A stretch of DNA of 52,608 nt from a virus (taxonomy: Duplodnaviria > Caudoviricetes), in the IMG/VR virus record IMGVR_UViG_3300020182_000048, positions 1 through 52,608 of that record, one strand, 5' to 3'. A program made the position numbers and the translations under genes. The notes under the pieces are model-generated. The model did no database searches. It was not told the origin of the DNA and saw only the letters and a program-made list of their open reading frames with translations. Positions 1-15,587 of the stretch are shown in pieces (the first letter of the stretch is position 1; each line of letters starts with the position of its first letter).

Positions 1-28
1 CGTTTTGTCGATAAACTACAGCCACGGA

Positions 29-799
29 CTAAAGAATATCAGCTACTTGGGAGTCATTGGTCTTTTCAATTAATTTATCAATTGCCTTCCGTTTTATTTC
101 AGAGATTCTAACACCCTTCTTTTTATAAGATCCTTCGATACCTAATATGGCACATATTTCTACAGCATCGTGCTTGTCACAATCAAGACCAAAACTTAGT
201 CTTATTACATCTTGTTCACGCTCTGTTAAATGCTTTTTTAGTAAGGCAAGTATGTACTCATTCATAAGATCCACATTGTACTCAGTAGAGTCATCTTCTA
301 TCTCAATTACTGATCCGCTATCATCATCACTATTCATTGTAAAATCACCTAAATACATCGACTTAGATTTGCTTAGCAAATTATTAATTGCAGGATTGTT
401 AGAGCTTTTGCGCACTTCATTGATCTTCCACTCAGGAATTTTAATATCTCCCATGTTATGATTAATGTAGCGCCTAATCGTGCCCTTAATTCGCTTTGAT
501 AGGAAACTCTTAATAGTTTGTTCTATGTTGTTAGAACTGTTTAAAACTTCCCAGTCAATCTTATCTACAGCTTTTATTAAGCCAATGTGACCTGCTTGTA
601 TCAGATCGTTAATTGATAGCACTCCTATGGCTTGATGTGATGTTGCAAATTTACGTGCAAGGTTTTCCGTTAAGGGCATGAACTTAGTTATAAGTTGGTC
701 TCGAGTATATTCGTCAAAGAATACACCGGGTAAATTATTTAACGTTTCTTTAAGATCTTTTTGGTATCTTACATAGTTGTCGATATTATATTTTTTCAT
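29..799 (-). CDS. Phage-encoded sigma70-family RNA polymerase sigma factor
   Basis: Region 2-like motif DLIQAGHIGLIKAVDK and region 4-like LTEREQDVIRLSFGL...RISEIKRKAIDKL; 256 aa. Confidence 0.9.
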   Translation of the reverse strand: MKKYNIDNYVRYQKDLKETLNNLPGVFFDEYTRDQLITKFMPLTENLARKFATSHQAIGVLSINDLIQAGHIGLIKAVDKIDWEVLNSSNNIEQTIKSFLSKRIKGTIRRYINHNMGDIKIPEWKINEVRKSSNNPAINNLLSKSKSMYLGDFTMNSDDDSGSVIEIEDDSTEYNVDLMNEYILALLKKHLTEREQDVIRLSFGLDCDKHDAVEICAILGIEGSYKKKGVRISEIKRKAIDKLIEKTNDSQVADIL

Positions 800-920
800 T
801 GTTTATTTTTTTGTATGCTTCTGTCATAGCTTGATGATTAGAGTAGTACTTATTTTGAATCTTAAGCATCCACTCATTAAATTTATCTACTTCTTTAATT
901 GGCTCGTCGGGTTTATTCAT
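786..920 (-). CDS. Hypothetical 44-aa protein (MNKPDEPIKEVDKFNEWMLKIQ...)
   Basis: Hand-translated; lies just downstream of promoter motif 944-975 and overlaps the sigma start. Confidence 0.55.
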   Translation of the reverse strand: MNKPDEPIKEVDKFNEWMLKIQNKYYSNHQAMTEAYKKINNEKI

Positions 921-932
921 AAATGTATAGCA

Positions 933-1091
933 TTATTTGAAAGTATTATCTTTTGTTGATCGTAATTGGTCTGCATTCTTGTATGGACAGTGCTTGCAAC
1001 CATTATCACAACAATATCCTCTTTTAATATGATACGCTTCAGTGAAGCATCGATAACCTTCTTCTGTTATGTAATAATCTTTTTCTTCCAT
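933..1091 (-). CDS. Small Cys-rich protein, DUF5522-like (52 aa)
   Basis: Hand-translated MEEKDYYITEEGYRCFTEAYHIKRGYCCDNGCKHCPY...; RGYCCxNGCxHCPY signature. Confidence 0.75.
   Translation of the reverse strand: MEEKDYYITEEGYRCFTEAYHIKRGYCCDNGCKHCPYKNADQLRSTKDNTFK
944..975 (-). promoter_or_regulatory. Early promoter-like motif copy 1 (TGCAGAC-N4-YACG-N10-GATAATA)
   Basis: Plus strand tattatc-ttttgttgat-cgt-aattg-gtctgca; spacing identical to 12 other copies. Confidence 0.75.
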
Positions 1092-1126
1092 AATTTATTT
1101 TTTAAACTTTAGCATAATACCATGCG

Positions 1127-1154
1127 AGTTTGTCGTAAAAACGTGTGATTATAT
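1127..1154 (+). promoter_or_regulatory. Late-type promoter-like motif, antisense to early genes
   Basis: AGTTTG-N12-GTGATTATAT; same architecture as the four motifs upstream of late genes. Confidence 0.5.
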
Positions 1155-1231
1155 ACGTATACTGAAACACTTTAAATTTTAGTTTAATCTTTTATTTTTA
1201 ACTAAAAATAATAACTTGTAGTTTAAGCATC

Positions 1232-1480
1232 CTATATGTCACGGCCTGGGTTATTTTTATTTGTTAACGACTGGATCTGTTTAAAAACATTAGCAGCTCT
1301 AGTATAGTCTTCTTGCTTCTCGTAATGCAATAGTAACATTTGCAGCTCTGCTATTTGTTCTTCATTACTTGGTAAGCTATCAACAAATTCTTCGTTGAAG
1401 GCTATTGTATCCGCTTCTATTTTGGCAAATATTCTATTCGATATCATATCTGCGATCTTCTCCATTTCTTCTTCTGTCAT
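1232..1480 (-). CDS. Hypothetical protein with UvrB/UvrC (UVR)-like C-terminal motif
   Basis: LLHYEKQEDYTRAANVFKQIQSL resembles the UVR coiled-coil motif. Confidence 0.55.
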   Translation of the reverse strand: MTEEEMEKIADMISNRIFAKIEADTIAFNEEFVDSLPSNEEQIAELQMLLLHYEKQEDYTRAANVFKQIQSLTNKNNPGRDI

Positions 1481-1483
1481 ACT

Positions 1484-1759
1484 TTAATTTAAGTTAGTTA
1501 ACTGGTATTCACCAGATAGTATTTTATCTCGGGTTAAATCGACACCTTCTCCTAAGAAATCACGCCTGTACTCAGCTGTGGTTTTAGAATAGTCCCATGT
1601 GTTCTCGTCAAGTTGTACCTTGCCATTGTGATCACGGAAAGCAACCGTACTGTTGTAACTTTGAAAGTACGTGCCATCAGACGTGTATAGCAAGAATTGA
1701 TTAGGGGCAGGATTGCCACCCCTAGTTGTCATCTGTCTTACTCTAGGCTTCATCTTCAT
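1484..1759 (-). CDS. Conserved-type phage early protein
   Basis: FQSYNSTVA...WDYSKTT..Y...FL pattern recalled from phage early proteins; 91 aa. Confidence 0.7.
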   Translation of the reverse strand: MKMKPRVRQMTTRGGNPAPNQFLLYTSDGTYFQSYNSTVAFRDHNGKVQLDENTWDYSKTTAEYRRDFLGEGVDLTRDKILSGEYQLTNLN

Positions 1760-2108
1760 CTTCTATTATGTTAAACAAATCTTCTAGCTTAGAATAGATC
1801 TCATCACCTATATCGTGTGTATGATTGAACTCGATGTTTTCTAATGATATTCTATTATCATAATCTAAGTTAAACTCGTAGTCATAGGCATTGCAATCAG
1901 TAAAATCTATATTGCCAATAGCTTCTTCAACAGCCTCGCTTAGTTCGTCTAAGAATTTTTTAGTTACTTTAGGTCTGTCTACAACTGCAAGCCGTTGCTC
2001 AGCATCCGCTAGATCTTTCTGTAGCATTTCAGCATCGTTATTAAACGTTGTAATAGCTGCCGTTAATTCTTTTACTTTTCTTTGTAATTCTTCTTTAGTC
2101 ATTTCCAT
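1743..2108 (-). CDS. Hypothetical protein, N-terminal coiled coil and acidic C-terminus
   Basis: 121-aa ORF directly downstream of promoter motif 2138-2169. Confidence 0.75.
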   Translation of the reverse strand: MEMTKEELQRKVKELTAAITTFNNDAEMLQKDLADAEQRLAVVDRPKVTKKFLDELSEAVEEAIGNIDFTDCNAYDYEFNLDYDNRISLENIEFNHTHDIGDEIYSKLEDLFNIIEDEDEA

Positions 2109-2137
2109 ATTATATTTATTTAGTTATTATTCAATTG

Positions 2138-2169
2138 TATTATCTATTAGTGATCGTGTTTAGTCTGTA
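2138..2169 (-). promoter_or_regulatory. Early promoter-like motif copy 2
   Basis: tattatc-N10-cgt-N5-gtctgta. Confidence 0.7.
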
Positions 2170-2387
2170 AGTTTAAATTCAAACTTCATTCGTATGTGTT
2201 TACTTACAAAGCTACCGACTGAATGTGCAGTCTGTAATCCACGCCATACGTGGGTTGGTACATCAAAGTAAGTGTAAGTCGCACCGCGATTAAACATTAC
2301 CATTAGTTCTTCTTCTCGGTGTTTATACTGTGCATAGACTACCGCTTCTGATTCTACGATCAGGATCTCTTTAGTTACTTTACTCAT
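2160..2387 (-). CDS. KTSC-domain protein
   Basis: Y...EELMVMFNRGATYTYFDVP..VW..L..A.SVGSF..KHIR is the KTSC pattern; start placed at MSKVT, right after the upstream stop. Confidence 0.85.
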   Translation of the reverse strand: MSKVTKEILIVESEAVVYAQYKHREEELMVMFNRGATYTYFDVPTHVWRGLQTAHSVGSFVSKHIRMKFEFKLTD

Positions 2388-2388
2388 A

Positions 2389-2538
2389 TTAGTATTTATA
2401 TTTAATATCACTTACTTCTCGTACTATTATTTCGTGTGAATGATCGCAATACATTATTGCCCATTGTCTAGCTTCGTCTAGTGTTTTTGCTAGTATGAAT
2501 GTAACTTCATCTGCATTGTAGATCATGAATTTACTCAT
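2389..2538 (-). CDS. Hypothetical 49-aa protein
   Basis: Hand-translated MSKFMIYNADEVTFILAKTLDEARQWAI...; packed tightly against neighbours. Confidence 0.6.
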   Translation of the reverse strand: MSKFMIYNADEVTFILAKTLDEARQWAIMYCDHSHEIIVREVSDIKYKY

Positions 2539-2671
2539 CGAGTTTTATTTTTACATAGGTTAATCCGTCATATCCGGATGCACTCCATTGAAATAATTGG
2601 TTTGGTGTTAAGTTGCATGCTAGCGATTCTAATTCTTCGATAGGCATAAGGTCAATTTGCTTTGCAGTCAT
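2531..2671 (-). CDS. Hypothetical 46-aa protein
   Basis: Hand-translated MTAKQIDLMPIEELESLACNL...; TAACTATG start context shared with other early genes. Confidence 0.6.
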   Translation of the reverse strand: MTAKQIDLMPIEELESLACNLTPNQLFQWSASGYDGLTYVKIKLDE

Positions 2672-2692
2672 AGTTATTTAGTTTAATATTAG

Positions 2693-2748
2693 TAACCGCA
2701 AGGAGATTCGAACTCCTTCACCCGTCAGTGGCGTTCCTTTCGCGGTTA
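2693..2748 (-). ncRNA. Minimal tRNA-like element (acceptor stem plus canonical T arm, no D stem)
   Basis: TAACCGCG-AAAGGAA-CGCC[ACTGACG]GGTG-A-AGGAG[TTCGAAT]CTCCT-TGCGGTTA. Confidence 0.65.
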
Positions 2749-2785
2749 TCAGCTATTACGTGATCATGAATCGTATCTTTCGCCT

Positions 2786-2859
2786 AGTAGTTATCTTCCA
2801 TCTAACAACGGACTTGCACCGTGCCGGGAGTTAATTAAATTCCCGCTCGTGATACTACT
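2786..2859 (-). ncRNA. Unrecognised structured RNA, tandem copy A
   Basis: Closing stem AGTAGTATC/GATAACTACT, hairpin GGGAATT/AACTCCC, T-loop-like hairpin ACGG-TGCAAGT-CCGT. Confidence 0.65.
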
Positions 2860-2860
2860 T

Positions 2861-2961
2861 AGTAGTTATTTTCCTGTATATGCTAGGTATACCTAGATTT
2901 ACCTCAGGATCGGACTTGCACCGTGCCGACGGCTAATTACGCCGCCGCTCGTAATACTACT
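2861..2961 (-). ncRNA. Unrecognised structured RNA, tandem copy B
   Basis: Closing stem AGTAGTATT/AATAACTACT, hairpin GGCGGC/GCCGTC, identical GGCACGGTGCAAGTCCG core, extra arm TCCTG...CTAGGTATACCTAG...CAGGA. Confidence 0.65.
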
Positions 2962-3176
2962 TATTTTAGTTTTTTATACCACATTTTAAACAGTCTGCCA
3001 ATAGTAGGCCACATAAAGTAAAATGGTAGTACAACGTTTAGTAATAACTTTTTCTTAGTGGTTATACACATATCATCCCAATCGTCGTGGTATATCGCAT
3101 TTATATCAACCATTATAGCGGATATTAAAATAGTCCAGTTAACAATATATAGTGCTTTTATAAAAAATATTATCAT
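2961..3176 (-). CDS. Small membrane protein
   Basis: 71 aa with two hydrophobic segments. Confidence 0.65.
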   Translation of the reverse strand: MIIFFIKALYIVNWTILISAIMVDINAIYHDDWDDMCITTKKKLLLNVVLPFYFMWPTIGRLFKMWYKKLK

Positions 3177-3194
3177 AGTTTTTTAGGTTTTAGG

Positions 3195-3677
3195 TTAGTC
3201 AAACTGATCCGTTGAAGTGTATAGCATTTCAACTTTAGGGTTAGCGCAATGTGCTTTTTCATTTACATAGTAATTACGATAAGCAGCTACGGAATCGCCT
3301 GAAACTTTATACTCGTCTGGCATACATTGAGGCATTTCAGTCAAGCCGGTATTAAAGATCGGACCAGGTGTTTGAGACAGTATGTTCTCGCACTTGATTA
3401 TAGTCAGGTGTTTTTTACCGTAGCGCTTAGTATATTCATTGCCAAGAGCTAACATGTGGAAGTATAGCCATGCGTAGTTTTGTACAGATTGTCTCGTCCA
3501 CACAGCACTCGGATGGTTTTTGTGTGTTAGTTTGTAGGGGACATCTATCTCACTATCTAGCATGTGATGAGCTGAACACAGTAGCTGTGCTGACTCAAGT
3601 ATCATCTTGACAACGTGTTTATTGTATTGTTTTTGTGCAGCGATAACTGGATCGCTATGTAAATAAAATATATTCAT
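3195..3677 (-). CDS. Pyrimidine-dimer DNA glycosylase / endonuclease V (DenV-like) family protein
   Basis: MNIFYL...A....KHVVKMILESAQLL...YK.THKNHPSAVW...EY..RYGK.H signature. Confidence 0.85.
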   Translation of the reverse strand: MNIFYLHSDPVIAAQKQYNKHVVKMILESAQLLCSAHHMLDSEIDVPYKLTHKNHPSAVWTRQSVQNYAWLYFHMLALGNEYTKRYGKKHLTIIKCENILSQTPGPIFNTGLTEMPQCMPDEYKVSGDSVAAYRNYYVNEKAHCANPKVEMLYTSTDQFD

Positions 3678-3702
3678 AGTTATTAGATTTTGTATTCAGT
3701 TA

Positions 3703-3734
3703 TATTATCATTAGGTAGACGTAATTAGTCTGCA
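3703..3734 (-). promoter_or_regulatory. Early promoter-like motif copy 3
   Basis: tattatc-attaggtaga-cgt-aatta-gtctgca. Confidence 0.75.
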
Positions 3735-4084
3735 ACTGGTATTACTTTGTTAGCTACATTGTCATATATTGCTAATTGTTTGTTAAATTTAGCTATTTTC
3801 ATCGCTTTTTTGAGATCGCTTACACTTAAGCCGTAGTCAAGAAAGTATATATCGTCTTCACTTAGCCAACCACCTAGTAATTCGTGATCACTGTTGAATG
3901 CCTCGTCTACTATTTGCCATGTATTTTTTGAAAATAGCGATGGATTTGCAGTTTTAAGTACATTTTGTGTGCTTACAGTGTAGCGCTCTAGTCTTGTGCG
4001 GTTTATATTGTGAGTGAAATCTGCTTTTGCATTAATTTTGTTAACAACATCTTGTTGCGGTGATATTTCAATTATTCTTCCCAT
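3725..4084 (-). CDS. Putative SAM lyase/hydrolase-like protein
   Basis: C-terminal LGGW....YFLD......KAMKIAKFNKQLAIYD resembles phage SAMase-like proteins. Confidence 0.45.
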   Translation of the reverse strand: MGRIIEISPQQDVVNKINAKADFTHNINRTRLERYTVSTQNVLKTANPSLFSKNTWQIVDEAFNSDHELLGGWLSEDDIYFLDYGLSVSDLKKAMKIAKFNKQLAIYDNVANKVIPVAD

Positions 4085-4277
4085 AGTACATTTTTTTAAC
4101 TACATTGTTATAAACGTATTGTCGGCGATCCGTCCACTCGTCGCCCTCGCAATCGCCTATTATAGTGTTGCCCTCCATCTGCCAGTCGATTGTGTTAAGT
4201 ATGTGATCTTCTAGGTAAAATAGTATGCGGTCAACGACCTCATCTAGTTCGTTATTTAATTCGAGTTCAGGTTTCAT
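4068..4277 (-). CDS. Acidic hypothetical protein
   Basis: 69-aa ORF in the early operon. Confidence 0.65.
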   Translation of the reverse strand: MKPELELNNELDEVVDRILFYLEDHILNTIDWQMEGNTIIGDCEGDEWTDRRQYVYNNVVKKMYYGKNN

Positions 4278-4280
4278 AAG

Positions 4281-4346
4281 TTAATTGCGTATAGCATACG
4301 CGGCAGCAGCAGCGCATTGAGTTAATATTTTTTTCAGTTTTCTCAT
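4281..4346 (-). CDS. 21-aa micropeptide MRKLKKILTQCAAAAAYAIRN
   Basis: TAACTATG start; fills the gap between neighbours exactly; paralog at 9325-9390. Confidence 0.6.
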   Translation of the reverse strand: MRKLKKILTQCAAAAAYAIRN

Positions 4347-4348
4347 AG

Positions 4349-4528
4349 TTATGCTTTTATGTAGGTTAAACCTTTGTAGTTGAACCAGTTAGATATTCCT
4401 TCTTTTTCTCCGTCGTCAGAGACTTTAAAGCCGAAGCTTGGTGGTAATGCACCTACAGTGTAAGGTCGGTACTTAACGCCGTCTAGTGTGATAGTTCGGT
4501 TTTGTCGGTTGTATTTGAATGACTTCAT
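4349..4528 (-). CDS. Hypothetical protein
   Basis: ORF track 4349..4555; likely start at MKSFKY right after the upstream stop. Confidence 0.65.
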   Translation of the reverse strand: MKSFKYNRQNRTITLDGVKYRPYTVGALPPSFGFKVSDDGEKEGISNWFNYKGLTYIKA

Positions 4529-4529
4529 A

Positions 4530-4733
4530 TTATTCTTCGTTTTTATAGTGTTCAATTATTCCTGCTATTTCGTAATCCATATTCACTAGCTCGTCTGCTA
4601 GTCTTATCAGTTTCTTAAATCCGTTCAGCTCGTAGCTGCTGAAGTCATAGACATCATCGTTTTCGATCGCTCTCACGCAATCTTGTAGGTCTTGTGCAGT
4701 GTTTTCAAACCTGCAGTAGCTCATATTTCCCAT
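4530..4733 (-). CDS. Conserved-type phage protein (NMSYCRFENT motif)
   Basis: N-terminal MGNMSYCRFENT..DL.DC, recalled as a recurring phage early-protein motif. Confidence 0.7.
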   Translation of the reverse strand: MGNMSYCRFENTAQDLQDCVRAIENDDVYDFSSYELNGFKKLIRLADELVNMDYEIAGIIEHYKNEE

Positions 4734-4734
4734 G

Positions 4735-4935
4735 TTATTTGGTTTTTAGTTGTTCGCGTATAGCAAGTAACGCTAGCTTGTAGCCATACTGCTTTGACAT
4801 TTGCATTAATAAAAAATCGTTGCTTCCTTGGTTAGCGTCGGTAAATCGATCTAGGTAATCTTCGTCAGGTGTAGCTACAATGCCACGGCCTAATTTTGCT
4901 AATTCTACTTCGATAAAGGTGTTTACATTTTTCAT
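4735..4935 (-). CDS. Hypothetical protein
   Basis: 66-aa ORF, operon-packed. Confidence 0.7.
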   Translation of the reverse strand: MKNVNTFIEVELAKLGRGIVATPDEDYLDRFTDANQGSNDFLLMQMSKQYGYKLALLAIREQLKTK

Positions 4936-4945
4936 AGTTATATAT

Positions 4946-5278
4946 TTAATAGTTTACATCAGTTCCTGGATATTCTTTTACAATTCGTTTTGCAACTTCT
5001 TCTTCTATCTGGCGTATTATGTCAGCTTCCCAGGTTACGAAGGAGTTACCGTATAGTTGAGTGTATAATTCTTTGAACCCTACGTACTTGCATCGCTTGT
5101 TGTTAACATAGAACTCAAGTTCCGTGTCATTTATATCCGCTCCCCAATCCGTTTTTACAGCGGAATATAGGAATGAGTGGGTTGTGGCGTTCACAGTAAA
5201 TATACCGAGGTCGATATAGCTGTGGTGCATAAGGTTTGTACTTTTATTTACTTCGGCAATTTTTACTTTGTATTTCAT
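4946..5278 (-). CDS. Hypothetical protein
   Basis: 110-aa ORF, TAACTATG start context. Confidence 0.7.
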   Translation of the reverse strand: MKYKVKIAEVNKSTNLMHHSYIDLGIFTVNATTHSFLYSAVKTDWGADINDTELEFYVNNKRCKYVGFKELYTQLYGNSFVTWEADIIRQIEEEVAKRIVKEYPGTDVNY

Positions 5279-5283
5279 AGTTA

Positions 5284-5439
5284 TTAGTATTTAGTGTTAA
5301 TTCCTTCAGCGAAGGATTTGTTAGTTAATTCAGTGCACATAGTGTATAGATCACAGCGTAGTAGTACTTGATCGCTATCCGGTAATAATTCGTTAATTCG
5401 CTTGAAAGAACGTTGTAATGGCGATAATTCTTTAGTCAT
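5284..5439 (-). CDS. Hypothetical 51-aa protein
   Basis: Hand-translated MTKELSPLQRSFKRINELLPDSDQ...; first ORF after promoter 5465-5496. Confidence 0.65.
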   Translation of the reverse strand: MTKELSPLQRSFKRINELLPDSDQVLLRCDLYTMCTELTNKSFAEGINTKY

Positions 5440-5464
5440 AGTTATATATTTTTAGTTACATTTA

Positions 5465-5496
5465 TATTATCTTTTGCAGTGCGTATTTCGTCTGCA
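5465..5496 (-). promoter_or_regulatory. Early promoter-like motif copy 4
   Basis: tattatc-ttttgcagtg-cgt-atttc-gtctgca. Confidence 0.75.
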
Positions 5497-5790
5497 AGGC
5501 TCCGCATGTTCGTCACGAGACGAGATCGCAGAGTGGTATGCCCACATACAACTGTTTATAAAGCAGTGCTCGGGTACATTTTTTTGCTCGTAAGCGAAGG
5601 TGTATAGCATTTGCTTATAAAACGCTGTTAAACCTTTATCACTTACACACCACGATTTCTTAAAGCACTCGTACTCATCGCCTTGCATAAAGTTTAATCC
5701 CATTACTTTTCCGTCGCGGTCATACTCTATGTACATCCATCTGTCGTTGTCATCGCACCATTGGTGCACTACTCTATCTAGTTCTTGCAT
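5467..5790 (-). CDS. Hypothetical protein
   Basis: 107-aa ORF whose 3' end contains the promoter motif. Confidence 0.7.
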   Translation of the reverse strand: MQELDRVVHQWCDDNDRWMYIEYDRDGKVMGLNFMQGDEYECFKKSWCVSDKGLTAFYKQMLYTFAYEQKNVPEHCFINSCMWAYHSAISSRDEHAEPCRRNTHCKR

Positions 5791-5802
5791 AATTATTATA
5801 TT

Positions 5803-6189
5803 TTAGTCGTTAGTTATTGTGATTAAATTCCAGTTTTTAGAGCCAAGGCGGCTTAGGTGAGAACACCCTTTTTCAATGCAGAATACTTCTCTGCCCGCGT
5901 CGTTAGTTATAAGAAATCCACTGCCAGCATCGCGAAGCGTAACTTCGTACAGTTTAGTGGGTGTTATATTGGGTGTACCGCTAGCAGTAGTGAAAGCATA
6001 GGTTATTTCGATCGGTTTCTCGTCGGGTATTTGGTTGAATAGTTCGTGACGTATATCCTCCATCAGCTCTACGTCGGAGTTGTCCATGTTAAAGTCGTTA
6101 GTCTCGGCTTCGTGGTCAAGTATATCACCCAACAAATCGTGTAGTCGGTGGAATTGTTTTACTGGTAATTTTAGTTTTGCAGTTTGCAT
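5803..6189 (-). CDS. Hypothetical protein, paralog of 7005..7376
   Basis: Shares LPVKQFHRL.DLLGD..D.EAE.N.FNM and ELFNQIPDEK. Confidence 0.8.
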   Translation of the reverse strand: MQTAKLKLPVKQFHRLHDLLGDILDHEAETNDFNMDNSDVELMEDIRHELFNQIPDEKPIEITYAFTTASGTPNITPTKLYEVTLRDAGSGFLITNDAGREVFCIEKGCSHLSRLGSKNWNLITITND

Positions 6190-6217
6190 AGTATATATTG
6201 TTTATTAGTTACATTGT

Positions 6218-6249
6218 TATTATCTATCGGTGGACGTATTTGGTCTGCA
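6218..6249 (-). promoter_or_regulatory. Early promoter-like motif copy 5
   Basis: tattatc-tatcggtgga-cgt-atttg-gtctgca. Confidence 0.75.
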
Positions 6250-6456
6250 AACGTCATCTACTCGCATATCGTTGCTTGCATTGATCGCTTCATAGTAAGG
6301 TGATAACATCCACTCTATTTTAGCTAGATCATGACCCACGTCCCGTAGCATTTTACGGTAATCGTTAGGGTTTTCGCGTATAGCAACCGCATATTTGTAC
6401 GTTGCTTTGTCGTTGTAGTCGAGCACCCATAGGTACATAGTTTCTTTATTTTCCAT
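6220..6456 (-). CDS. Hypothetical protein
   Basis: 78-aa ORF. Confidence 0.7.
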   Translation of the reverse strand: MENKETMYLWVLDYNDKATYKYAVAIRENPNDYRKMLRDVGHDLAKIEWMLSPYYEAINASNDMRVDDVCRPNTSTDR

Positions 6457-6468
6457 AGTTTTATAGTA

Positions 6469-6816
6469 TTATAGGTTAAACATTTCTTTTAGCGATTTAA
6501 CAGCGTCTTTGCGTTTAAGGTTAATATTTTCCTCTTCGTGGGTGTCTAGTTCACCTACAAGATCGTCTAGATGTTCGTACATGTGGTCGAGTGCAACCGC
6601 TAGTACGTTGTGTTCCGTATTCGTTAGTGTAGTTTGACCTATATGTACTTTCAGTTTATTTTGTTCGATAAATTTGTGTAATACTTCATTTATATTACCG
6701 AGTGCACGGTCGATTTCGAAAGATTGTTCAGGTGAAATATCACCGCTATCGAGATCGAAGTCTTCGCATATTCCGCTCCAATCGATTTCTACATATTCTT
6801 CAGTTAAATTCTTCAT
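6469..6816 (-). CDS. Acidic hypothetical protein
   Basis: 115 aa, D/E-rich. Confidence 0.7.
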   Translation of the reverse strand: MKNLTEEYVEIDWSGICEDFDLDSGDISPEQSFEIDRALGNINEVLHKFIEQNKLKVHIGQTTLTNTEHNVLAVALDHMYEHLDDLVGELDTHEEENINLKRKDAVKSLKEMFNL

Positions 6817-6818
6817 AG

Positions 6819-6998
6819 TTATATATATTTTTTTAATTCTTTTCTTACTTTAATTACATCTTCGTCTGATATTTCTTCGTCTAGAAAGCAATTTTCACGT
6901 TGTAGGTACACATCGTATACTATATCGTGAAATCCCTCCCACATTAGGTCGTCCATGCGGTCCGCTATTTCTTTTATTTCTTCGTCAGTTAGTTTCAT
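6819..6998 (-). CDS. Acidic 59-aa protein
   Basis: Hand-translated MKLTDEEIKEIADRMDDLMWEGFHDIVYDVYLQ... Confidence 0.7.
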   Translation of the reverse strand: MKLTDEEIKEIADRMDDLMWEGFHDIVYDVYLQRENCFLDEEISDEDVIKVRKELKKYI

Positions 6999-7004
6999 AG
7001 TTAC

Positions 7005-7376
7005 TTAGTTTTCTACGTTAATAATGGTCCAATCTCTACCGTTTAGGAAAGCACAGTTCTTGAAGAGACAATAGATTACTTCACCGTCTTCGACTTCTAA
7101 TTTGAAACCGTGCTTACTCGTTTTTTCTGTTATTTTATATAGTTTACCCGCTTGTATACTAGGGTTTGACGATCGGCCGGTTACAGCGTAATCAGTGTAG
7201 GTTTTTTCGTCAGGTATTTGGTTGAATAATTCAATCCGTATATCCTCTAAGAATTCGATGTCATTACTCTCCATATTGAAAACGTTAATCTCGGCCTCAT
7301 AGTCAATTAGATCACCTAATAAATCGTATAGTCGGTGGAATTGTTTTACTGGTAATTCTAGTTCTGCTTTTTGCAT
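7005..7376 (-). CDS. Hypothetical protein, paralog of 5803..6189
   Basis: Clear DNA and protein similarity to 5803..6189. Confidence 0.8.
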   Translation of the reverse strand: MQKAELELPVKQFHRLYDLLGDLIDYEAEINVFNMESNDIEFLEDIRIELFNQIPDEKTYTDYAVTGRSSNPSIQAGKLYKITEKTSKHGFKLEVEDGEVIYCLFKNCAFLNGRDWTIINVEN

Positions 7377-7392
7377 AGTATTTATATATTTA

Positions 7393-7569
7393 TTAGTTAT
7401 TATTAGTTAAGTACAGTTCTTTCGGAGGATTTACATCGTTACCTATTTGGTCGTCGATAAAATTTACCCAAGCATCGTGGTCTTCGAATAGTGGTTCTAG
7501 TATAGAATAGTGATTTTCTAGGTCCACTACATTATTAAAATAAATTCGGTTATTAAATGGTTTTTTCAT
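7393..7569 (-). CDS. Hypothetical 58-aa protein
   Basis: Hand-translated MKKPFNNRIYFNNVVDLENH...; first ORF after promoter 7599-7630. Confidence 0.6.
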   Translation of the reverse strand: MKKPFNNRIYFNNVVDLENHYSILEPLFEDHDAWVNFIDDQIGNDVNPPKELYLTNNN

Positions 7570-7598
7570 ATTATATAGTTATTATTTGTATTCACATT

Positions 7599-7630
7599 TA
7601 TTATCAAAAGGTAATCGTAATTAGTCTGCA
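7599..7630 (-). promoter_or_regulatory. Early promoter-like motif copy 6
   Basis: tattatc-aaaaggtaat-cgt-aatta-gtctgca. Confidence 0.75.
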
Positions 7631-7640
7631 ACCGTGACAA

Positions 7641-7690
7641 CCATTACCGTAGCCACTTACAAACACTTAATACCACTTACCCACTAAAAT
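7641..7690. repeat. Helically phased CACTTA repeats in a non-coding gap (origin candidate)
   Basis: CACTTA at 7654, 7664 and 7674 (10-bp period), plus CCATTAC at 7641 and CACTAA at 7682; AT-rich tract follows. Confidence 0.5.
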
Positions 7691-7707
7691 AATCCCATAT
7701 TTACTGT

Positions 7708-7736
7708 AGCTTTCACCCCAAAACAGGTAATTATAT
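7708..7736 (+). promoter_or_regulatory. Late-type promoter-like motif (13-bp spacer) facing into non-coding DNA
   Basis: AGCTTT-N13-GTAATTATAT. Confidence 0.45.
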
Positions 7737-7897
7737 TAATTTAATTAAATACTAGTTCTTTAAGTGTACTTTTATTACCATGAGTAAATTAGTACTCTAG
7801 TCTAATAGATAGTCTCTGACTACTCTACACTAGTATTACTTAACTAAAGCTTAGTTATCTAAGTTAGCTCAGTGGGGTCCATTTCTTCAACATCGAC

Positions 7898-8134
7898 CTA
7901 AAATTCTTTTAAGTAAAACCTTATTAACTCTGACATCGTGAACTTTTTCCTCCACTGTGTTGTCTGTTCTATATAGGTATCTTCACCGATCATTTCTACA
8001 TTACCGTCTTCGATCCAATTTATCACCATTCCTACATCGACCATATCCGTTATCTCTTCGTGAGTCAGGTGGTCATATTCCTGTATTAGATCGGTGTAAA
8101 TTTCTTCCCTTAATTCTTCAGTAGTTAGTGTCAT
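7898..8134 (-). CDS. Acidic hypothetical protein
   Basis: 78-aa ORF downstream of promoter 8160-8191. Confidence 0.7.
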   Translation of the reverse strand: MTLTTEELREEIYTDLIQEYDHLTHEEITDMVDVGMVINWIEDGNVEMIGEDTYIEQTTQWRKKFTMSELIRFYLKEF

Positions 8135-8159
8135 ATTAGTGTGTTTTTGTATTCACATA

Positions 8160-8191
8160 TATTATCTTTAGGTGAGCGTAATCTGTCTGCA
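8160..8191 (-). promoter_or_regulatory. Early promoter-like motif copy 7
   Basis: tattatc-tttaggtgag-cgt-aatct-gtctgca. Confidence 0.75.
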
Positions 8192-8211
8192 AGGTGACAC
8201 TGCTTCTACCG

Positions 8212-8278
8212 TGCTATACGCGTTGCTATACACCGCTATGACCGCCCGCTGAGGACGGAACATACCTATGCTATACAC
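8212..8278 (+). repeat. TGCTATACRC boxes (tandem pair plus one single)
   Basis: TGCTATACGC-GT-TGCTATACAC at 8212-8233; TGCTATACAC at 8269. Confidence 0.8.
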
Positions 8279-8301
8279 ACGCTGAGGTGTGGTTTTTTTA
8301 G

Positions 8302-8409
8302 TTAGTATTCGTTTTCATCTTCGTCGTCAAATACGGCGTGCTCTAGACACGATCCGCATAGTTCGTCGCTTAAATAGCTTGGCTCTGAGCCACAACAGTT
8401 ACTCCACAT
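8302..8409 (-). CDS. 35-aa zinc-ribbon-like peptide
   Basis: MWSNCCGSEPSYLSDELCGSCLEHAVFDDEDENEY; SNCCG...CxxCxEH. Confidence 0.65.
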   Translation of the reverse strand: MWSNCCGSEPSYLSDELCGSCLEHAVFDDEDENEY

Positions 8410-8411
8410 AA

Positions 8412-8552
8412 TTATTCTATTAAGTTATTATTAATTGCATACTCTAGATTATCTAGTGCTTTTTGTATATCGTCAGCGATCGGCTCACATCCGTGATAGC
8501 TTAGACTTCGTTGACATAGTTCTAACATTTCTTTCGTTTCAGTATAGTTCAT
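8412..8552 (-). CDS. Hypothetical 46-aa protein
   Basis: Hand-translated MNYTETKEMLELCQRSLSYHGCEPIADD...; first ORF after promoter 8577-8608. Confidence 0.6.
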   Translation of the reverse strand: MNYTETKEMLELCQRSLSYHGCEPIADDIQKALDNLEYAINNNLIE

Positions 8553-8576
8553 ATTATTTAGTTTTAGTTACATTAT

Positions 8577-8608
8577 TATTATCTATTAGTACTCGTAATT
8601 CGTCTGCA
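8577..8608 (-). promoter_or_regulatory. Early promoter-like motif copy 8
   Basis: tattatc-tattagtact-cgt-aattc-gtctgca. Confidence 0.75.
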
Positions 8609-8630
8609 TTTGGCCGAAGCCTAAGCCTGA

Positions 8631-8987
8631 CTAAGTCAGACTTGCTTCAGAATCCTGGAATTCTTTTGACGTCTCGTCAATTTCCAGTTCTTCGATCGTA
8701 GCCAAGTGCCTCACATTCGTCGGCAAGTTAGTGCTTTGAGACCAGTACTTTCGCTTAAGCCAGCAAGCTTGGAACTTCAGTTTCGGAAGCATTGCTTCGA
8801 GTATCACGTCGTGATTGTAAGTCACTCTTTGATTTTTGTTGTTCACAAAAGTTATTATTTGATTTCGATTCATCCAGCTTTCTCGGACTACGAAGTTCTT
8901 TCGCTCGATCGGCGGGAAGATTTTAGCTTTATCTTCGTTGGACATTGATTTCAGTGCATTCTGTAAAATTTCATTTGAATTTTGCAT
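8631..8987 (-). CDS. Hypothetical protein behind two tandem early promoters
   Basis: 118-aa ORF; hairpin AAGTCTGAC-TTA-GTCAGGCTT spans its stop codon. Confidence 0.75.
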   Translation of the reverse strand: MQNSNEILQNALKSMSNEDKAKIFPPIERKNFVVRESWMNRNQIITFVNNKNQRVTYNHDVILEAMLPKLKFQACWLKRKYWSQSTNLPTNVRHLATIEELEIDETSKEFQDSEASLT

Positions 8988-9033
8988 AGTTATTAGAATT
9001 TAATTATTAATTATTATTATTAGTATTCAATTA

Positions 9034-9065
9034 TATTATCGATTTATAGACGTGATTAGTCTGCA
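9034..9065 (-). promoter_or_regulatory. Early promoter-like motif copy 9
   Basis: tattatc-gatttataga-cgt-gatta-gtctgca. Confidence 0.75.
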
Positions 9066-9137
9066 ACTTTGTATTATTAAATAATTTCTTAATTTATTTT
9101 TATTTTATTATTTATATTAATTACTTACTTACAACTA

Positions 9138-9169
9138 TATTATCTAAAAGTGAACGTAGTTTGTCTGCA
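9138..9169 (-). promoter_or_regulatory. Early promoter-like motif copy 10
   Basis: tattatc-taaaagtgaa-cgt-agttt-gtctgca. Confidence 0.75.
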
Positions 9170-9208
9170 AAAATGGGGGGTGACAAAATGACATGACATA
9201 ACGTCGCA

Positions 9209-9230
9209 TGCTATACGCGTTGCTATACAC
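9209..9230 (+). repeat. Tandem TGCTATACRC box pair
   Basis: TGCTATACGC-GT-TGCTATACAC, identical to 8212-8233. Confidence 0.8.
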
Positions 9231-9231
9231 G

Positions 9232-9316
9232 CCTCCGGCGTTGCCGCTGTGACCCACAGCCACGTCAGCTGCTAGTTTCCTTATAGGGATCGGGGTCAGG
9301 CATTGGCGCCGCGAGG
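9232..9316 (-). ncRNA. GC-rich branched stem-loop (candidate ncRNA or 3' UTR structure)
   Basis: Nested pairings CCTC(G)CGGCG/CGCCGGAGG, TGCC/GGCA, TGACCC/GGGTCA, with two inner hairpins. Confidence 0.45.
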
Positions 9317-9324
9317 TCGTGATC

Positions 9325-9390
9325 TTAGTTCCTTAGTGCATACCCAGCTCCTCGAGCCAGGTCAGCAAGTATCCTCTTGAATGCTTTCAT
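9325..9390 (-). CDS. 21-aa micropeptide MKAFKRILADLARGAGYALRN
   Basis: ATGA overlap with the upstream stop; paralog of 4281-4346. Confidence 0.6.
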   Translation of the reverse strand: MKAFKRILADLARGAGYALRN

Positions 9391-9527
9391 TTTAGTATGG
9401 TATTTATAGTGTTCATAATCTGTACTGGGTTCAGTCCTGGGTAGTGGTCCTTCATCTGGCTTGCTACCTCGCCAGGCATTAGTAGCCCCATGGCGTAGGC
9501 TTGGATAATCTGTTCTGGTGTTCTCAT
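9387..9527 (-). CDS. Hypothetical 46-aa protein
   Basis: Hand-translated MRTPEQIIQAYAMGLLMPGEVASQ... Confidence 0.6.
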   Translation of the reverse strand: MRTPEQIIQAYAMGLLMPGEVASQMKDHYPGLNPVQIMNTINTILK

Positions 9528-9542
9528 CTGTTTGGTTTTAGA

Positions 9543-9713
9543 TTAGTATATGTTTGGATCTTTCTTAGCTCCCGCCAGATAGTTAGCCATCATCAGGCTG
9601 TCGATCTTGTGGCCGTCGATAGGTTGTATACCTTTCTTGTAGTCGGCTTCACTTCGGTTCTTCTGGTAGAACTTTATCAGTTCATTGATTGTGTTGTGAT
9701 CTTGTAAGGACAT
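9543..9713 (-). CDS. Hypothetical 56-aa protein
   Basis: Hand-translated MSLQDHNTINELIKFYQKNRSEADYKKG...; TAACTATG start. Confidence 0.6.
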   Translation of the reverse strand: MSLQDHNTINELIKFYQKNRSEADYKKGIQPIDGHKIDSLMMANYLAGAKKDPNIY

Positions 9714-9715
9714 AG

Positions 9716-9895
9716 TTATATGGATTTTAGTTTATACTTTATTATTTCTCGGTCGAGTATCTTAGTCACTGTTTCGATGTCACTGTTGTCTACGATCAGT
9801 CCGCCGTATGTTATATGGACTGGTCTGTTCAGTTTATTACTGTTTGTGATCTGGTTGATAGTCTTGTAGACTGTGTTGAATAGAATCTTTGTCAT
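9716..9895 (-). CDS. Hypothetical 59-aa protein
   Basis: Hand-translated MTKILFNTVYKTINQITNSNKLNRPVHITYGG...; first ORF after promoter 9924-9955. Confidence 0.65.
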   Translation of the reverse strand: MTKILFNTVYKTINQITNSNKLNRPVHITYGGLIVDNSDIETVTKILDREIIKYKLKSI

Positions 9896-9923
9896 AGTTA
9901 TTATATTTAGTTACTTACATTTA

Positions 9924-9955
9924 TATTATCTTAGAGTAGACGTGGTTTGTCTGCA
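9924..9955 (-). promoter_or_regulatory. Early promoter-like motif copy 11
   Basis: tattatc-ttagagtaga-cgt-ggttt-gtctgca. Confidence 0.75.
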
Positions 9956-9957
9956 AT

Positions 9958-9992
9958 GGATCCGCCTTGGCATCAAGGACCGGCTGAGGTTA
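9958..9992 (-). repeat. 35-bp conserved 3' element, copy 1
   Basis: TAACCTCAGCCGGTCCTTGATGCCAAGGCGGATCC; 31/35 identical to 10135-10169. Confidence 0.8.
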
Positions 9993-10064
9993 TCTCAGAC
10001 ATCGGTAGATAAGGTCTTTAATATCTTGGATTTTCATTTCTAAAGCGGGATCTAAATTTTTCAT
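9990..10064 (-). CDS. 24-aa micropeptide MKNLDPALEMKIQDIKDLIYRCLR
   Basis: Only ORF between promoter 10101-10132 and the 3' element. Confidence 0.5.
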   Translation of the reverse strand: MKNLDPALEMKIQDIKDLIYRCLR

Positions 10065-10100
10065 CTTATATTTATTTTAATTATTATTATCTTACAACTA

Positions 10101-10132
10101 TATTATCTATGGATCAACGTAAACCGTCTGCG
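10101..10132 (-). promoter_or_regulatory. Early promoter-like motif copy 12
   Basis: tattatc-tatggatcaa-cgt-aaacc-gtctgcg. Confidence 0.7.
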
Positions 10133-10134
10133 AA

Positions 10135-10169
10135 GGATCCGCCCTGGTGTCAAGGACAGGCTGAGGTTA
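10135..10169 (-). repeat. 35-bp conserved 3' element, copy 2
   Basis: TAACCTCAGCCTGTCCTTGACACCAGGGCGGATCC. Confidence 0.8.
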
Positions 10170-10238
10170 ATCATCCCAGTTACATCTTAGGAAGGTTGCT
10201 ATCAAAGCCATTGGTATTGCGATCAAGAATATTATCAT
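10167..10238 (-). CDS. 23-aa hydrophobic micropeptide MIIFLIAIPMALIATFLRCNWDD
   Basis: TAACTATG start after promoter 10277-10308; single TM-like segment. Confidence 0.55.
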   Translation of the reverse strand: MIIFLIAIPMALIATFLRCNWDD

Positions 10239-10276
10239 AGTTATTATTATTTATTATTATTATTATCTTACAACTA

Positions 10277-10308
10277 TATTATCTATAAGACAACGTGATC
10301 CGTCTGCA
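10277..10308 (-). promoter_or_regulatory. Early promoter-like motif copy 13 (outermost)
   Basis: tattatc-tataagacaa-cgt-gatcc-gtctgca. Confidence 0.75.
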
Positions 10309-10320
10309 AGCCGACCTCTA

Positions 10321-10342
10321 TGCTATACGCGTTGCTATACGC
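10321..10342 (+). repeat. Tandem TGCTATACRC box pair
   Basis: TGCTATACGC-GT-TGCTATACGC. Confidence 0.8.
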
Positions 10343-10552
10343 ACGCTGTGCGCAAGCACCTTAGCTAAGGCCTAGTTAGTAGTCCTAAACCCTGGGCGTA
10401 AAACCGCAGCTAAAGGTAAACCCTTAACCCCAATCCCTAAAACCCAAAGGGGGGTGGGTCAAATCAAATCCATTTCCGTAATCAAAATGGTTTTTCAATT
10501 TACTATATAGCCCTATACCCCTAATTATGTAATAAAGTTTTTTTTCGGGCGT

Positions 10553-10580
10553 AGCTTTTTAGAAAACTGGGTAATTATAT
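10553..10580 (+). promoter_or_regulatory. Late promoter-like motif
   Basis: AGCTTT-N12-GTAATTATAT upstream of the first plus-strand gene. Confidence 0.65.
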
Positions 10581-10606
10581 TAGTCATAGTGCTAAATTTT
10601 ATTTGA

Positions 10607-10891
10607 ATGGCTAGTAAACAAAAATTATCGCCTGCGGCGAGGAAGCGTAAAGCTGCCCGGGACCTAGCTTTTGCTAAGACGCCGGCACGTAGAGCTAAAA
10701 AAGCCCATGCGCAGAGGGAAAGACGCAAGGCGAAGAGGAAAGGTGTCAATGTTAAAGGTAAAGATTGGGATCACAAGGACGGAAGATGGGAAAGTGTTGC
10801 TAGAAACCGCGCAAATGATGGAAAAGGGACTAAAAGCGAGGGCAAAAAGAGGTACAAGGTACCAAAACGTAAAACAAAAAAGAAAAAATAG
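10607..10891 (+). CDS. Very basic protein with a minimal HNH-like motif
   Basis: GKDWDHKDG....SVARNRA; K/R-rich. Confidence 0.55.
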   Translation: MASKQKLSPAARKRKAARDLAFAKTPARRAKKAHAQRERRKAKRKGVNVKGKDWDHKDGRWESVARNRANDGKGTKSEGKKRYKVPKRKTKKKK

Positions 10892-10894
10892 AAT

Positions 10895-11593
10895 ATGTCT
10901 AGAATAATATCTTACCCGTATGATAATGATATCAAGGATGGAGACGCGTGGATAGGATCGGAGGCATCTACTGGGAAGACAAGGCAGTATACAGCTCAAG
11001 CGGTAGCAGATTACCTTAATGTAAACGGTAAGATATCTATTGGCACGGCAATGATCTATGAGTATGTATCAACGTCTTTAGCGGGTACAGGTACTATGGC
11101 TTTACAGGCCGGTGGAGGAGCTACGCCGTTCGCTAATGTGACGTCGTTGACGTTAAGTACTAATGACAGGAGTGGTTCTAATACAACTGCGTTTGTAAAC
11201 TACTTAGTTGGCTCTGACATACTTATAAATGAGCAAAAAAATTTATTGGCCTTCGGCCATTATACTGTCGAATCGTACACAGCGGTGTCTGCAGACTACT
11301 ATACTATAGAGGTATCATTTAACGGGGGACAGGGCAACTTGACTCCTACAGTAATTTATAACCTCGATAATTTTTTACTTGCATCGGATGCGGTGGGGGA
11401 TTTAAACTTTACATTTACGCAAAATACTGCGTCGGCCTCATGGGATATAGCACATAACCTTGGGAAATTCCCTTCGGTATCAGTAATAGACTCTGCAGGT
11501 ACCAACGTAATAGGCGAAGTGGATTACGGAGACAACAATAACTTAAGAATAAACTTTACCGCGGCTTTTGCTGGGGTCGCATACCTAAACTAA
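10895..11593 (+). CDS. Virion structural or fibre-associated protein
   Basis: Beta-rich; C-terminal W.I.HNLGKFPSVSVIDSAG...GEV.Y domain typical of fibre modules. Confidence 0.65.
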   Translation: MSRIISYPYDNDIKDGDAWIGSEASTGKTRQYTAQAVADYLNVNGKISIGTAMIYEYVSTSLAGTGTMALQAGGGATPFANVTSLTLSTNDRSGSNTTAFVNYLVGSDILINEQKNLLAFGHYTVESYTAVSADYYTIEVSFNGGQGNLTPTVIYNLDNFLLASDAVGDLNFTFTQNTASASWDIAHNLGKFPSVSVIDSAGTNVIGEVDYGDNNNLRINFTAAFAGVAYLN

Positions 11594-11615
11594 AACAAAT
11601 AAATAAACAAACAAC

Positions 11616-15571: not shown

Positions 15572-15587
15572 ACAATGATTATTATGT

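Follow-up and report, generated by a model that had tools for sequence, protein, structure and literature searches.

The IMG/VR virus record IMGVR_UViG_3300020182_000048, a linear sequence of 52,608 nucleotides from the Caudoviricetes with an estimated completeness of 82%, was analyzed over its entire length (hereafter, the window), and the subject of this account is a short DNA word that recurs in it, the 10-bp box TGCTATACRC. The window comprises two arms of opposite polarity: minus-strand genes occupy positions 29 to 10043, where about 30 small open reading frames (ORFs), mostly without an assigned function, form the leftward, early arm, and plus-strand genes extend from 10607 to the end of the window and form the late arm. 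The last gene of the leftward arm codes for a phage sigma factor (Table 1), with the Pfam matches Sigma70_r2 (1.3e-4) and r4 (1.3e-3) both falling under the Pfam cut-offs. The late arm encodes tail-fibre-like proteins, an endolysin, a holin and virion proteins, with matches to GroEL (1.3e-127), the large terminase (1.4e-160) and the portal (9.3e-140), as well as a protein with a crAss muzzle-like N-terminus (Pfam PF25731, 2.1e-10) and a giant, open-ended ORF of at least 2913 amino acids, for which no Pfam match was found over the 2913 residues within the window. The GroEL and GroES-like genes (15632-17170 and 23917-24522, plus strand) are present also in relatives among Flavobacterium and Cellulophaga phages. 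No RNA families were detected in positions 1-11000, and no tRNAs in the window.

An exact scan finds the box 13 times, against 0.25 copies expected and a maximum of 2 in 100 dinucleotide-preserving shuffles: six copies lie on the minus strand between 1.7 and 6.4 kb, seven on the plus strand between 8.2 and 10.3 kb, and none in the 42-kb late arm (10343-52608). In copy number, positions, strands and the empty late arm, the scan agrees with the original prediction for this DNA, and the near match placed there at 924 is real. The same holds for the three tandem pairs, each of 22 nt, said to lie about 1 kb apart (the separations are 997 and 1112 bp) and 12-39 bp upstream of early promoters (measured distances are in Table 1); the claim that all six minus-strand copies are coding stands for five of them, whereas the copy at 4287-4296 is intergenic. 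The word is sharply defined, given that the window holds only three one-mismatch copies (923, minus; 50536 and 50762, plus) against the 13 exact ones; two of the three differ at the last base alone, C to T. Copies with two mismatches number 55, of which 48 are in the late arm, and match the noise expectation. The copy at 3217 forms the loop of a 6-bp inverted repeat, GTTGAA/TTCAAC (window 3207-3236), and in the relative G004 (L147 8886) two synonymous changes, T to C and A to G, preserve the pairing of this repeat, a feature seen at this one copy.

Table 1. Boxes, promoter motifs and genes of the window that are discussed in the text
Feature	Position	Strand	Context
Phage sigma-factor gene, 256 aa	29..799	-	last gene of the leftward arm in the window; phrog_351, 1.5e-19
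Variant box TGCTATACAT	923..932	-	sense; just downstream of promoter 944-974, upstream of the sigma-factor gene
Three-part promoter TTGCAGAC-N5-ACG-N9-11-GATAATA	944..10309	-	12 copies, all leftward, 0 expected; GCAGAC 5' ends at 974, 3733, 5495, 6248, 7629, 8190, 8607, 9064, 9168, 9954, 10131, 10307
Single box TGCTATACAC	1683..1692	-	sense, within 91-aa ORF 1484-1759
Single box TGCTATACAC	3217..3226	-	sense, close to 3' end of 160-aa ORF 3195-3677
Single box TGCTATACGC	4287..4296	-	sense, intergenic, 9 nt before ATG at 4277
Single box TGCTATACGC	4756..4765	-	sense, within 66-aa ORF 4735-4935
Single box TGCTATACAC	5600..5609	-	sense, within 107-aa ORF 5467-5790
Single box TGCTATACGC	6376..6385	-	sense, within 78-aa ORF 6220-6456
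ORF-free stretch, 266 bp	7632..7897		between the orientation groups; carries the diverging promoter pair
Rightward promoter motif TAGCTTT-N13-GTAATTATAT	7707..7736	+	at the flip point; kept in G002 (L146) and G004 (L147)
Tandem pair, 12-bp period	8212..8233	+	antisense to leftward genes; 19 nt upstream of leftward promoter ending 8192
Third plus-strand box of the 8.2-kb cluster	8269..8278	+	3' end within plus-strand hairpin 8276-8291, then T7
Gene for 118-aa early protein	8631..8987	-	best-conserved small early gene; candidate reader
Tandem pair	9209..9230	+	antisense; 38 nt upstream of leftward promoter ending 9170
Tandem pair	10321..10342	+	antisense; precedes the first leftward promoter (ends 10309) by 11 nt and the rightward late-class promoter (10552) by about 210 nt
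Variant box TGCTATACAT	50762..50771	+	sense, within the giant late ORF

The leftward promoters next to which the tandem pairs are found share a three-part motif, and 8 of its 12 copies fall within 7.4-10.7 kb. A simple sigma-70 scan reads the copies at 8189, 9167 and 9953 as CAGACA-17-GATAAT, and we take the three-part motifs to be, presumably, promoters for the host polymerase. For the crAss-like Cellulophaga phage phi14:2, the middle promoters are described as a tripartite, extended motif in which one block is -35-like and another -10-like and which is read by the host-type RNA polymerase (10.1101/2020.03.07.982082), and, as far as that verbal description permits a comparison, the TTGCAGAC/ACG/GATAATATA arrangement is similar; nothing resembling the 10-bp box is mentioned in the available portion of that report. 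A second motif, TAGCTTT-N13-GTAATTATAT, occurs three times, always on the plus strand and with 0 copies expected, at 7707, at 10552 (first late gene) and at 15587 (GroEL). The copy at 7707 diverges from the leftward promoter 7599-7631 within the largest ORF-free stretch of the arm, and thus, in this lineage, the flip in box orientation falls on a diverging promoter pair (7.6-7.7 kb). Any transcript from 7707 would have all seven plus-strand boxes in its sense, and the premise of the original prediction, that transcription is leftward on both sides of the flip, is put in doubt by this rightward late-class motif. No intrinsic terminator-like sites were detected on the minus strand within 1-10.4 kb (the total of 8 against 7.5 expected is at chance level), so that the closely packed early units lack an obvious means of ending.

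The box and its layout recur in all ten related virus records that were scanned whole, and 39 IMG/VR contigs, many measuring 58-68 kb, carry the tandem form, in 51 stretches altogether. In these relatives, single copies, mostly TGCTATACAC, are located on the gene strand, about one per kb, along the small-gene arm; tandem copies are located on the opposite strand, within the 2-3 kb adjoining the diverging junction; and the long late arm contains at most one to three copies, including an exact sense copy in a long open frame of at least 667 aa. In G007 and G010, two records of 66-68 kb, the single copies run on across the contig start, along a leftward arm of about 17 kb that encodes thymidylate synthase, a metallophosphatase, ERF, a PDDEXK exonuclease, endonuclease VII and a T7 gp4-like primase-helicase. 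In G007 (L141 ~3990-4030) and G008 (L142 ~4980-5020), a sense box and a promoter directly follow an apparent tRNA 3' end (GGTTCGAATC-type arm).

The orientation of the copies follows strict rules. Of the sense copies in nine early arms, 51 are within ORFs and 13 between them, and no antisense copy within a gene is credible; antisense copies are intergenic in 41 cases, and the remaining 8, in doubtful frames open on both strands, are all tandem pairs beside promoters. Coding does not explain this sense bias because the antisense word is open in two of the three frames. Among the 76 distinct tandem pairs, 71, followed along the strand on which they are antisense, lead directly into a three-part promoter, whereas the opposite orientation of pair and promoter was found in 0 of 75. 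Pair and -35-like block are separated by -10 to +54 nt (between -5 and +8 for 41 of the 71), and in some relatives the end of the pair itself supplies the -35-like letters. All three one-mismatch copies of the window obey the same rule. In the distant relatives G007, G009 and G006, plus copies are located to the left of minus copies and the orientations interleave, without a single flip. Across the genomes, then, orientation follows the local context, sense in genes and antisense in tandems before promoters, rather than by one central locus. The original prediction had the sites pointing away from such a locus; this polarity fits the window yet not the relatives, given the interleaving and the nearly copy-free late arm.

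Conservation of the box at orthologous positions is well above that of control 10-mers: pairwise comparisons find the box exact in 75 of 110 cases and the controls in 465 of 1929, and the box is still exact in 20 of 45 comparisons where the flanks are merely 70-80% identical. The other 35 orthologous comparisons present a different word at the site, that is, turnover. The 128 non-redundant sense copies carry no information beyond the 10-mer, save for A or T just before it, and in the same set TAnnnT, ATAAT and TAnnTTTG are not enriched at any downstream offset. Sense copies follow one another at a median distance of 1086 bp, with a mean coefficient of variation of 0.51 and none of 5000 random placements equally even, a statistic to be read with the caveat that the genomes are related and thus do not represent nine independent tests. 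These sequence patterns support the view of the box as a strongly selected, asymmetric and direction-sensitive element.

By the terminase, the nearest deposited phage is the uncultured podovirus MW202828 (63% identity), followed by Flavobacterium, Cellulophaga, Tenacibaculum and Maribacter phages (31-43%), and neither the early arm nor the promoter-plus-tandem stretch gave a DNA match to a cultured phage. The stretch 5500-12500 was traced to 20 sequencing runs (14 DNA and 6 RNA) of 13 studies of marine, sponge, sediment and estuary metagenomes, and each of the 14 DNA runs holds at least 69% of its sampled words; this phage group is abundant, widespread, uncultured and marine. MW202828 and Flavobacterium phage elemoE lack the box, with its 7-base core at background level. 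The early arm of MW202828 (L158/L159; MW202828.1, 43745-55172) contains 14 copies of a perfect palindrome, the 16-mer GTGTCGTTAACGACAC, mostly 15-25 nt ahead of early start codons and some within ORFs, which may be a hairpin-type promoter or a processing site. In bacterial genomes, the tandem form was found solely on three small contigs of one Bacteroidetes metagenome-assembled genome (G011). Across 81 genomes of the Bacteroidetes class of G011, which may not be the class of the phage host, the box occurs 0-26 times per genome with G011 itself excluded, and a reversed-word control 0-31 times; the excess in G011, 37 against 8, resides mostly on very small contigs and is consistent with binned pieces of phage.

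Several further features of the early arm concern its promoters and its borders. A 95-nt direct repeat (9898-9992 and 10075-10169, 73% identical) links a promoter to a conserved GC-rich element, GGATCCGCC..GGC..CAAGGAC.GGCTGAGGTTA, which takes the position held by tandem boxes at other promoters; the loop-like word GCTGAGG appears also at 8249 and 8281. Each of the first two promoters of the arm is followed by a very short ORF (10170-10241 and 9994-10068, minus strand; 23 and 24 codons as counted by eye), and one of these ORFs is hydrophobic. A late-type -10-like word, GTGATTATATAC, is located within the leftward arm at 1145-1156 (plus strand) and is kept in G002 and G004, and leftward copies of GTAATTATATA are found within the arm of G010, G006, G002 and G004; some arm genes may use the second promoter class described above. 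The junction between the arms (10343-10606) is non-coding and repetitive, with CCTAAA/AACCC-like words in the window, and in G007 it consists of about 900 bp of low-complexity CGTA and CACA repeats (L141 10861-11760); the junction could be an origin or joined physical ends. Many IMG/VR contigs terminate within 2 kb of tandem pairs, which could reflect a physical end or an assembly break at repeats.

What kind of element, then, is the box? A DNA-level site for a protein, albeit a putative one, is the most likely answer. The original prediction came to the same preference for DNA over RNA, and this part of it stands, although the argument from uniformly leftward transcription on which it was based is weakened by the 7707 motif. 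Going one step further, we infer protein binding, a polar effect and RNA polymerase as the target, and propose, with a probability of roughly 0.3, that the box is the binding site of a lineage-specific phage protein that serves as a one-way barrier, or insulator, to transcription. The factor, encoded by the phage and carried by some lineages alone, would occupy the asymmetric 10-bp site, admit RNA polymerase arriving from the T end of TGCTATACRC and hinder it when it arrives from the C end. Gene-internal copies would be tolerated in the sense orientation alone and would halt antisense or head-on traffic about every kb. Antisense tandem pairs, placed between units and immediately ahead of strong host-type promoters, would block polymerases that read on out of the preceding unit and shield the next promoter. 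Under this scheme, the window would be divided into two one-way zones that diverge from the promoter pair at 7.6-7.7 kb, one leftward (1-7.6 kb) and the other, once the factor is present, rightward (8.2-10.3 kb), and the rightward zone would also shut off the immediate-early units.

We prefer a polar barrier because it explains the strict tie of antisense tandems to the upstream side of promoters, because the sense-only rule in genes can be read as selection against the blocking orientation, and because it accords with a minus strand in which no intrinsic terminators were detected and needs no rightward transcript in every lineage. The variable gap between pair and promoter favors a barrier over an activator of fixed geometry, and a phage-encoded accessory reader is suggested by the background level of the box in the bacterial genomes surveyed together with its absence from sister lineages that share the promoters. 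Polar sites bound by a dedicated protein are well known from Tus-Ter, RTP-Ter and the promoter-proximal and downstream sites of TTF-I and Reb1 in ribosomal DNA. The box resembles these in that short asymmetric sites would be used in one orientation, in tandem or clustered, with one set just upstream of a promoter as a read-through shield; two opposed groups of sites, possible in such systems, occur in the window and its close relatives, and in G007, G009 and G006 the orientations interleave. Unlike in the Tus-Ter class, there is about one gene-internal site per kb in the permissive orientation, in the early arm alone, and polar arrest is here a prediction. In its fullest form, the proposal would be a one-way-street system in which a small phage protein and a word about every kb let polymerase pass in one direction and shield the early arm from antisense and head-on traffic, which we regard as a doubtful extension; equally speculative is the notion that, as the protein appears, the permitted direction of the immediate-early block reverses, creating an orientation-coded timing switch on the scale of the genome.

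Several observations weigh against a polar barrier. The evenly spaced permissive sites within genes call for an extra assumption, and the pair at 10321 is located upstream of the first promoter of the arm, with no upstream leftward transcription evident that it could block. Outside the proximal arms, the orientation rule loosens, with 13 copies sense, 4 antisense and 1 unclear (antisense copies thus make up 4 of 17 gene-embedded ones), and lone boxes directly upstream of promoters occur in both orientations. Furthermore, no binding protein was identified: no Tus, RTP, mTERF or Myb-type domains were detected by Pfam and PHROGs searches of the early ORFs (30-37 ORFs of the window, in a genome that is 82% complete), and the best candidate reader, described below, is also present in lineages that lack the box, so that it can be considered no more than a candidate.

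Two early proteins, of 160 and 118 aa, occur in each of the eight box-bearing relatives compared but not in MW202828. The 160-aa protein belongs to a broadly distributed type (phrog_624, 'DNA binding protein', 1.2e-51) and weakly matches a solved chain. The family of the 118-aa protein comprises 1687 clusters at E<=1e-3, without annotation (0 of 120 among those listed carry a Pfam domain), and has 40 invariant positions in 30 sequences; the protein matched neither a Pfam nor a PHROG family, and a sequence search revealed no relative of solved structure. Its predicted structure (pLDDT 82.9, pTM 0.69) has a best Foldseek E-value of 1.7 and gave no usable match in an Atlas search, and the best VIA-align row, to PvuII (Z 3.0, root-mean-square deviation 3.6 over 74 residues), is far below significance, with several restriction endonuclease-like folds among the 14 weak rows. 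Of 80 IMG/VR loci found via this protein, 76 carry boxes, 483 in 554 kb, and the other four combine the protein and the same promoters with no box, their whole records holding 1, 1, 0 and 0 copies. Judging from these loci, the box seems to be an accessory layer over shared promoters. Comparison of gene content between box-free and box-bearing records did not single out a reader, the box-free records being fragments 12-75% complete.

The closest competitor, and with the barrier one of the two transcription-linked DNA readings left after weighing, is an ops-like role, in our estimate rather improbable. The box would then be an element on the non-template strand that pauses RNA polymerase or loads an elongation or antitermination factor, with the copies at about 1-kb intervals reloading the factor along the early arm, and the tandems loading it on the rightward transcript from the flip promoter toward the late arm. 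The ops elements, which are read by RfaH-type factors, sit in leaders, usually one per operon; a short word in the sense (non-template) orientation of the transcription unit fits the 51 gene-embedded copies. Here, however, many copies lie within ORFs and there are antisense tandems, which would fit only given a rightward transcript. The sense-only orientation within genes and the even spacing are as such a role would have them, the late-class promoter at 7707, upstream of all seven plus-strand boxes, is conserved in both L146 and L147, and a signal read at the DNA level is compatible with sites in translated regions. That every box is sense to some transcript is, however, a rule of the window and two close relatives alone: in distant relatives, the late-class motif pattern is matched solely before the first late gene and not upstream of the tandems. 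Moreover, the tie of the tandems to the upstream side of leftward promoters would be incidental, the main late promoter at 10552 is downstream of all boxes, and a Pfam scan of the early ORFs of the window revealed no KOW domain of the NusG/RfaH type and no NusG paralogue.

A role in replication, quite unlikely in our view, would turn the boxes into polar sites for lagging-strand priming or helicase loading, or into fork barriers, around an origin in the 7.6-7.9 kb interval, an arrangement likened to the primary origin of T7, which sits behind promoters. For forks leaving 6.4-8.2 kb, all boxes of the window would be on the lagging-strand template, and gaps of about 1 kb are the size of Okazaki fragments. 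The leftward arm of a relative encodes the primase-helicase mentioned above (Toprim 6.7e-14, DnaB_C 2.2e-6), and the flip interval is not only the largest ORF-free stretch of the arm, with diverging promoters, but also close to the minimum of the cumulative GC skew, at 7-9 kb; the coincidence of skew and flip that the original prediction had suggested comparing is thus there, but amounts to weak evidence for origin or terminus polarity. The interleaved orientations in G007, G009 and G006 speak against this reading, as do a late arm of about 42 kb that is nearly copy-free though also replicated, the tie of the tandems to promoters rather than to one locus, and the length of the word, known primase recognition words being about 3 nt long. 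Replication-origin iterons, which form a direct-repeat array at one locus beside an AT-rich unwinding region and an initiator gene, were rejected as well: the pairs and triplets are at three or more separate promoter-tied loci, and single copies are distributed across about 17 kb.

Could a second polymerase, perhaps one packaged in the virion, start at the box, which would then be its promoter or initiation site and point along the transcript? The boxes are co-directional with genes, and the tandems and leftward promoters would form back-to-back diverging pairs. The window shares with crAss-like phages the muzzle-like protein and codes for a giant late ORF, and in crAss-like phages a giant virion protein is an RNA polymerase (10.1101/2020.03.07.982082). 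The box-free MW202828 carries a different repeated 16-mer, most copies of which precede early start codons. These parallels notwithstanding, within ORFs the boxes occur anywhere, with no set spacing to the following start codon, neither a flank nor an initiation context is conserved in the 128 copies, the giant ORF lacks a DFDxD motif in the 2913 residues within the window, and rightward transcripts from the tandems would be antisense to early genes; all told, we consider a second polymerase distinctly unlikely.

The early location and the co-orientation with genes bring to mind also the MotA boxes of T4, middle-promoter elements centered near -30, with a -10 element 11-13 bp downstream. Like the present box, these are 9-10 bp asymmetric words starting with TGCT, phage-specific, present in the early region and often within upstream ORFs. 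A MotA-type middle promoter is nevertheless not supported, given that no -10 element at a fixed distance was found in the 128 non-redundant sense boxes; the antisense tandem form has no counterpart in T4, and no Pfam match to a MotA or AsiA domain was detected in the ORFs of the window, where the small early proteins are mostly unassigned.

Very unlikely, in our assessment, is an action at the RNA level, whereby early transcripts reading through the tandem pairs, and so containing two copies of the complement of the box, would pair with sense boxes downstream, or an RNA-binding protein would read the sense word. Base-pairing would predict the sense word in targets and the complement in separate early intergenic stretches, which is what is seen; the tandems are probably transcribed, since the minus strand has no terminators separating them from the upstream early genes, and R at position 9 permits a G-U wobble. 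Yet, the predicted unpaired probability of the complement, 0.42 over 54 loci, is not above that of the flanks (0.40 and 0.55), no promoter was identified on the minus strand upstream of the pair at 10321, and single promoter-proximal copies occur in both orientations. Translated ORFs are, furthermore, a poor location for stable RNA-protein or RNA-RNA complexes.

Strand-specific nicks in virion DNA occur in phage T5, and the boxes might conceivably be such nick sites, kept on the non-template strand within genes, the word being exact, short, strand-specific and on the sense strand there; the weak top folds of the 118-aa protein are endonuclease-like, yet far below significance, a nuclease motif did not turn up, and at the tandems it would be the template strand of read-through early transcripts that is nicked, which makes this a far-fetched reading. 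Least of all can we see in the box a host-type polar chromosome motif borrowed to protect or steer phage DNA: like Chi (RecBCD/AddAB), KOPS (FtsK) and uptake sequences, it is an exact short polar word, about one per kb or few kb, tolerated in genes, its plus-strand copies would face an enzyme entering at the 10.4-kb junction if that junction is a physical end, and the contig ends near tandem pairs would be in line with this, but those motifs are properties of host chromosomes whereas the box is confined to about 17 kb of phage and is at background in the 81 genomes (an indirect test, for the reason of class given above), with the G011 excess mostly on very small contigs and ten exact bases exceeding every Chi known to us, so that this family of readings, which the original prediction had included, is close to refuted.

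A full-text literature search for four 10-mers returned only unrelated primer-type matches, and the literature on Cellulophaga, podoviruses, early genes and promoter motifs yielded nothing on such a box; in the literature searched, a one-way-street system of this kind was not found described for phages. Whatever its reader, the box offers a clean handle on early gene expression in these phages, being exact, scannable and subject to strict orientation rules, and its presence or absence between sister lineages that share the promoters enables a direct comparative search for the reader. Should one of the alternatives turn out to be correct, be it priming, starts of a second polymerase or nicks, the same map of sites shows where to look. 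If, on the other hand, the polar barrier is real, an arm without intrinsic terminators would have its transcription units ended and insulated by means of a protein and an orientation code.

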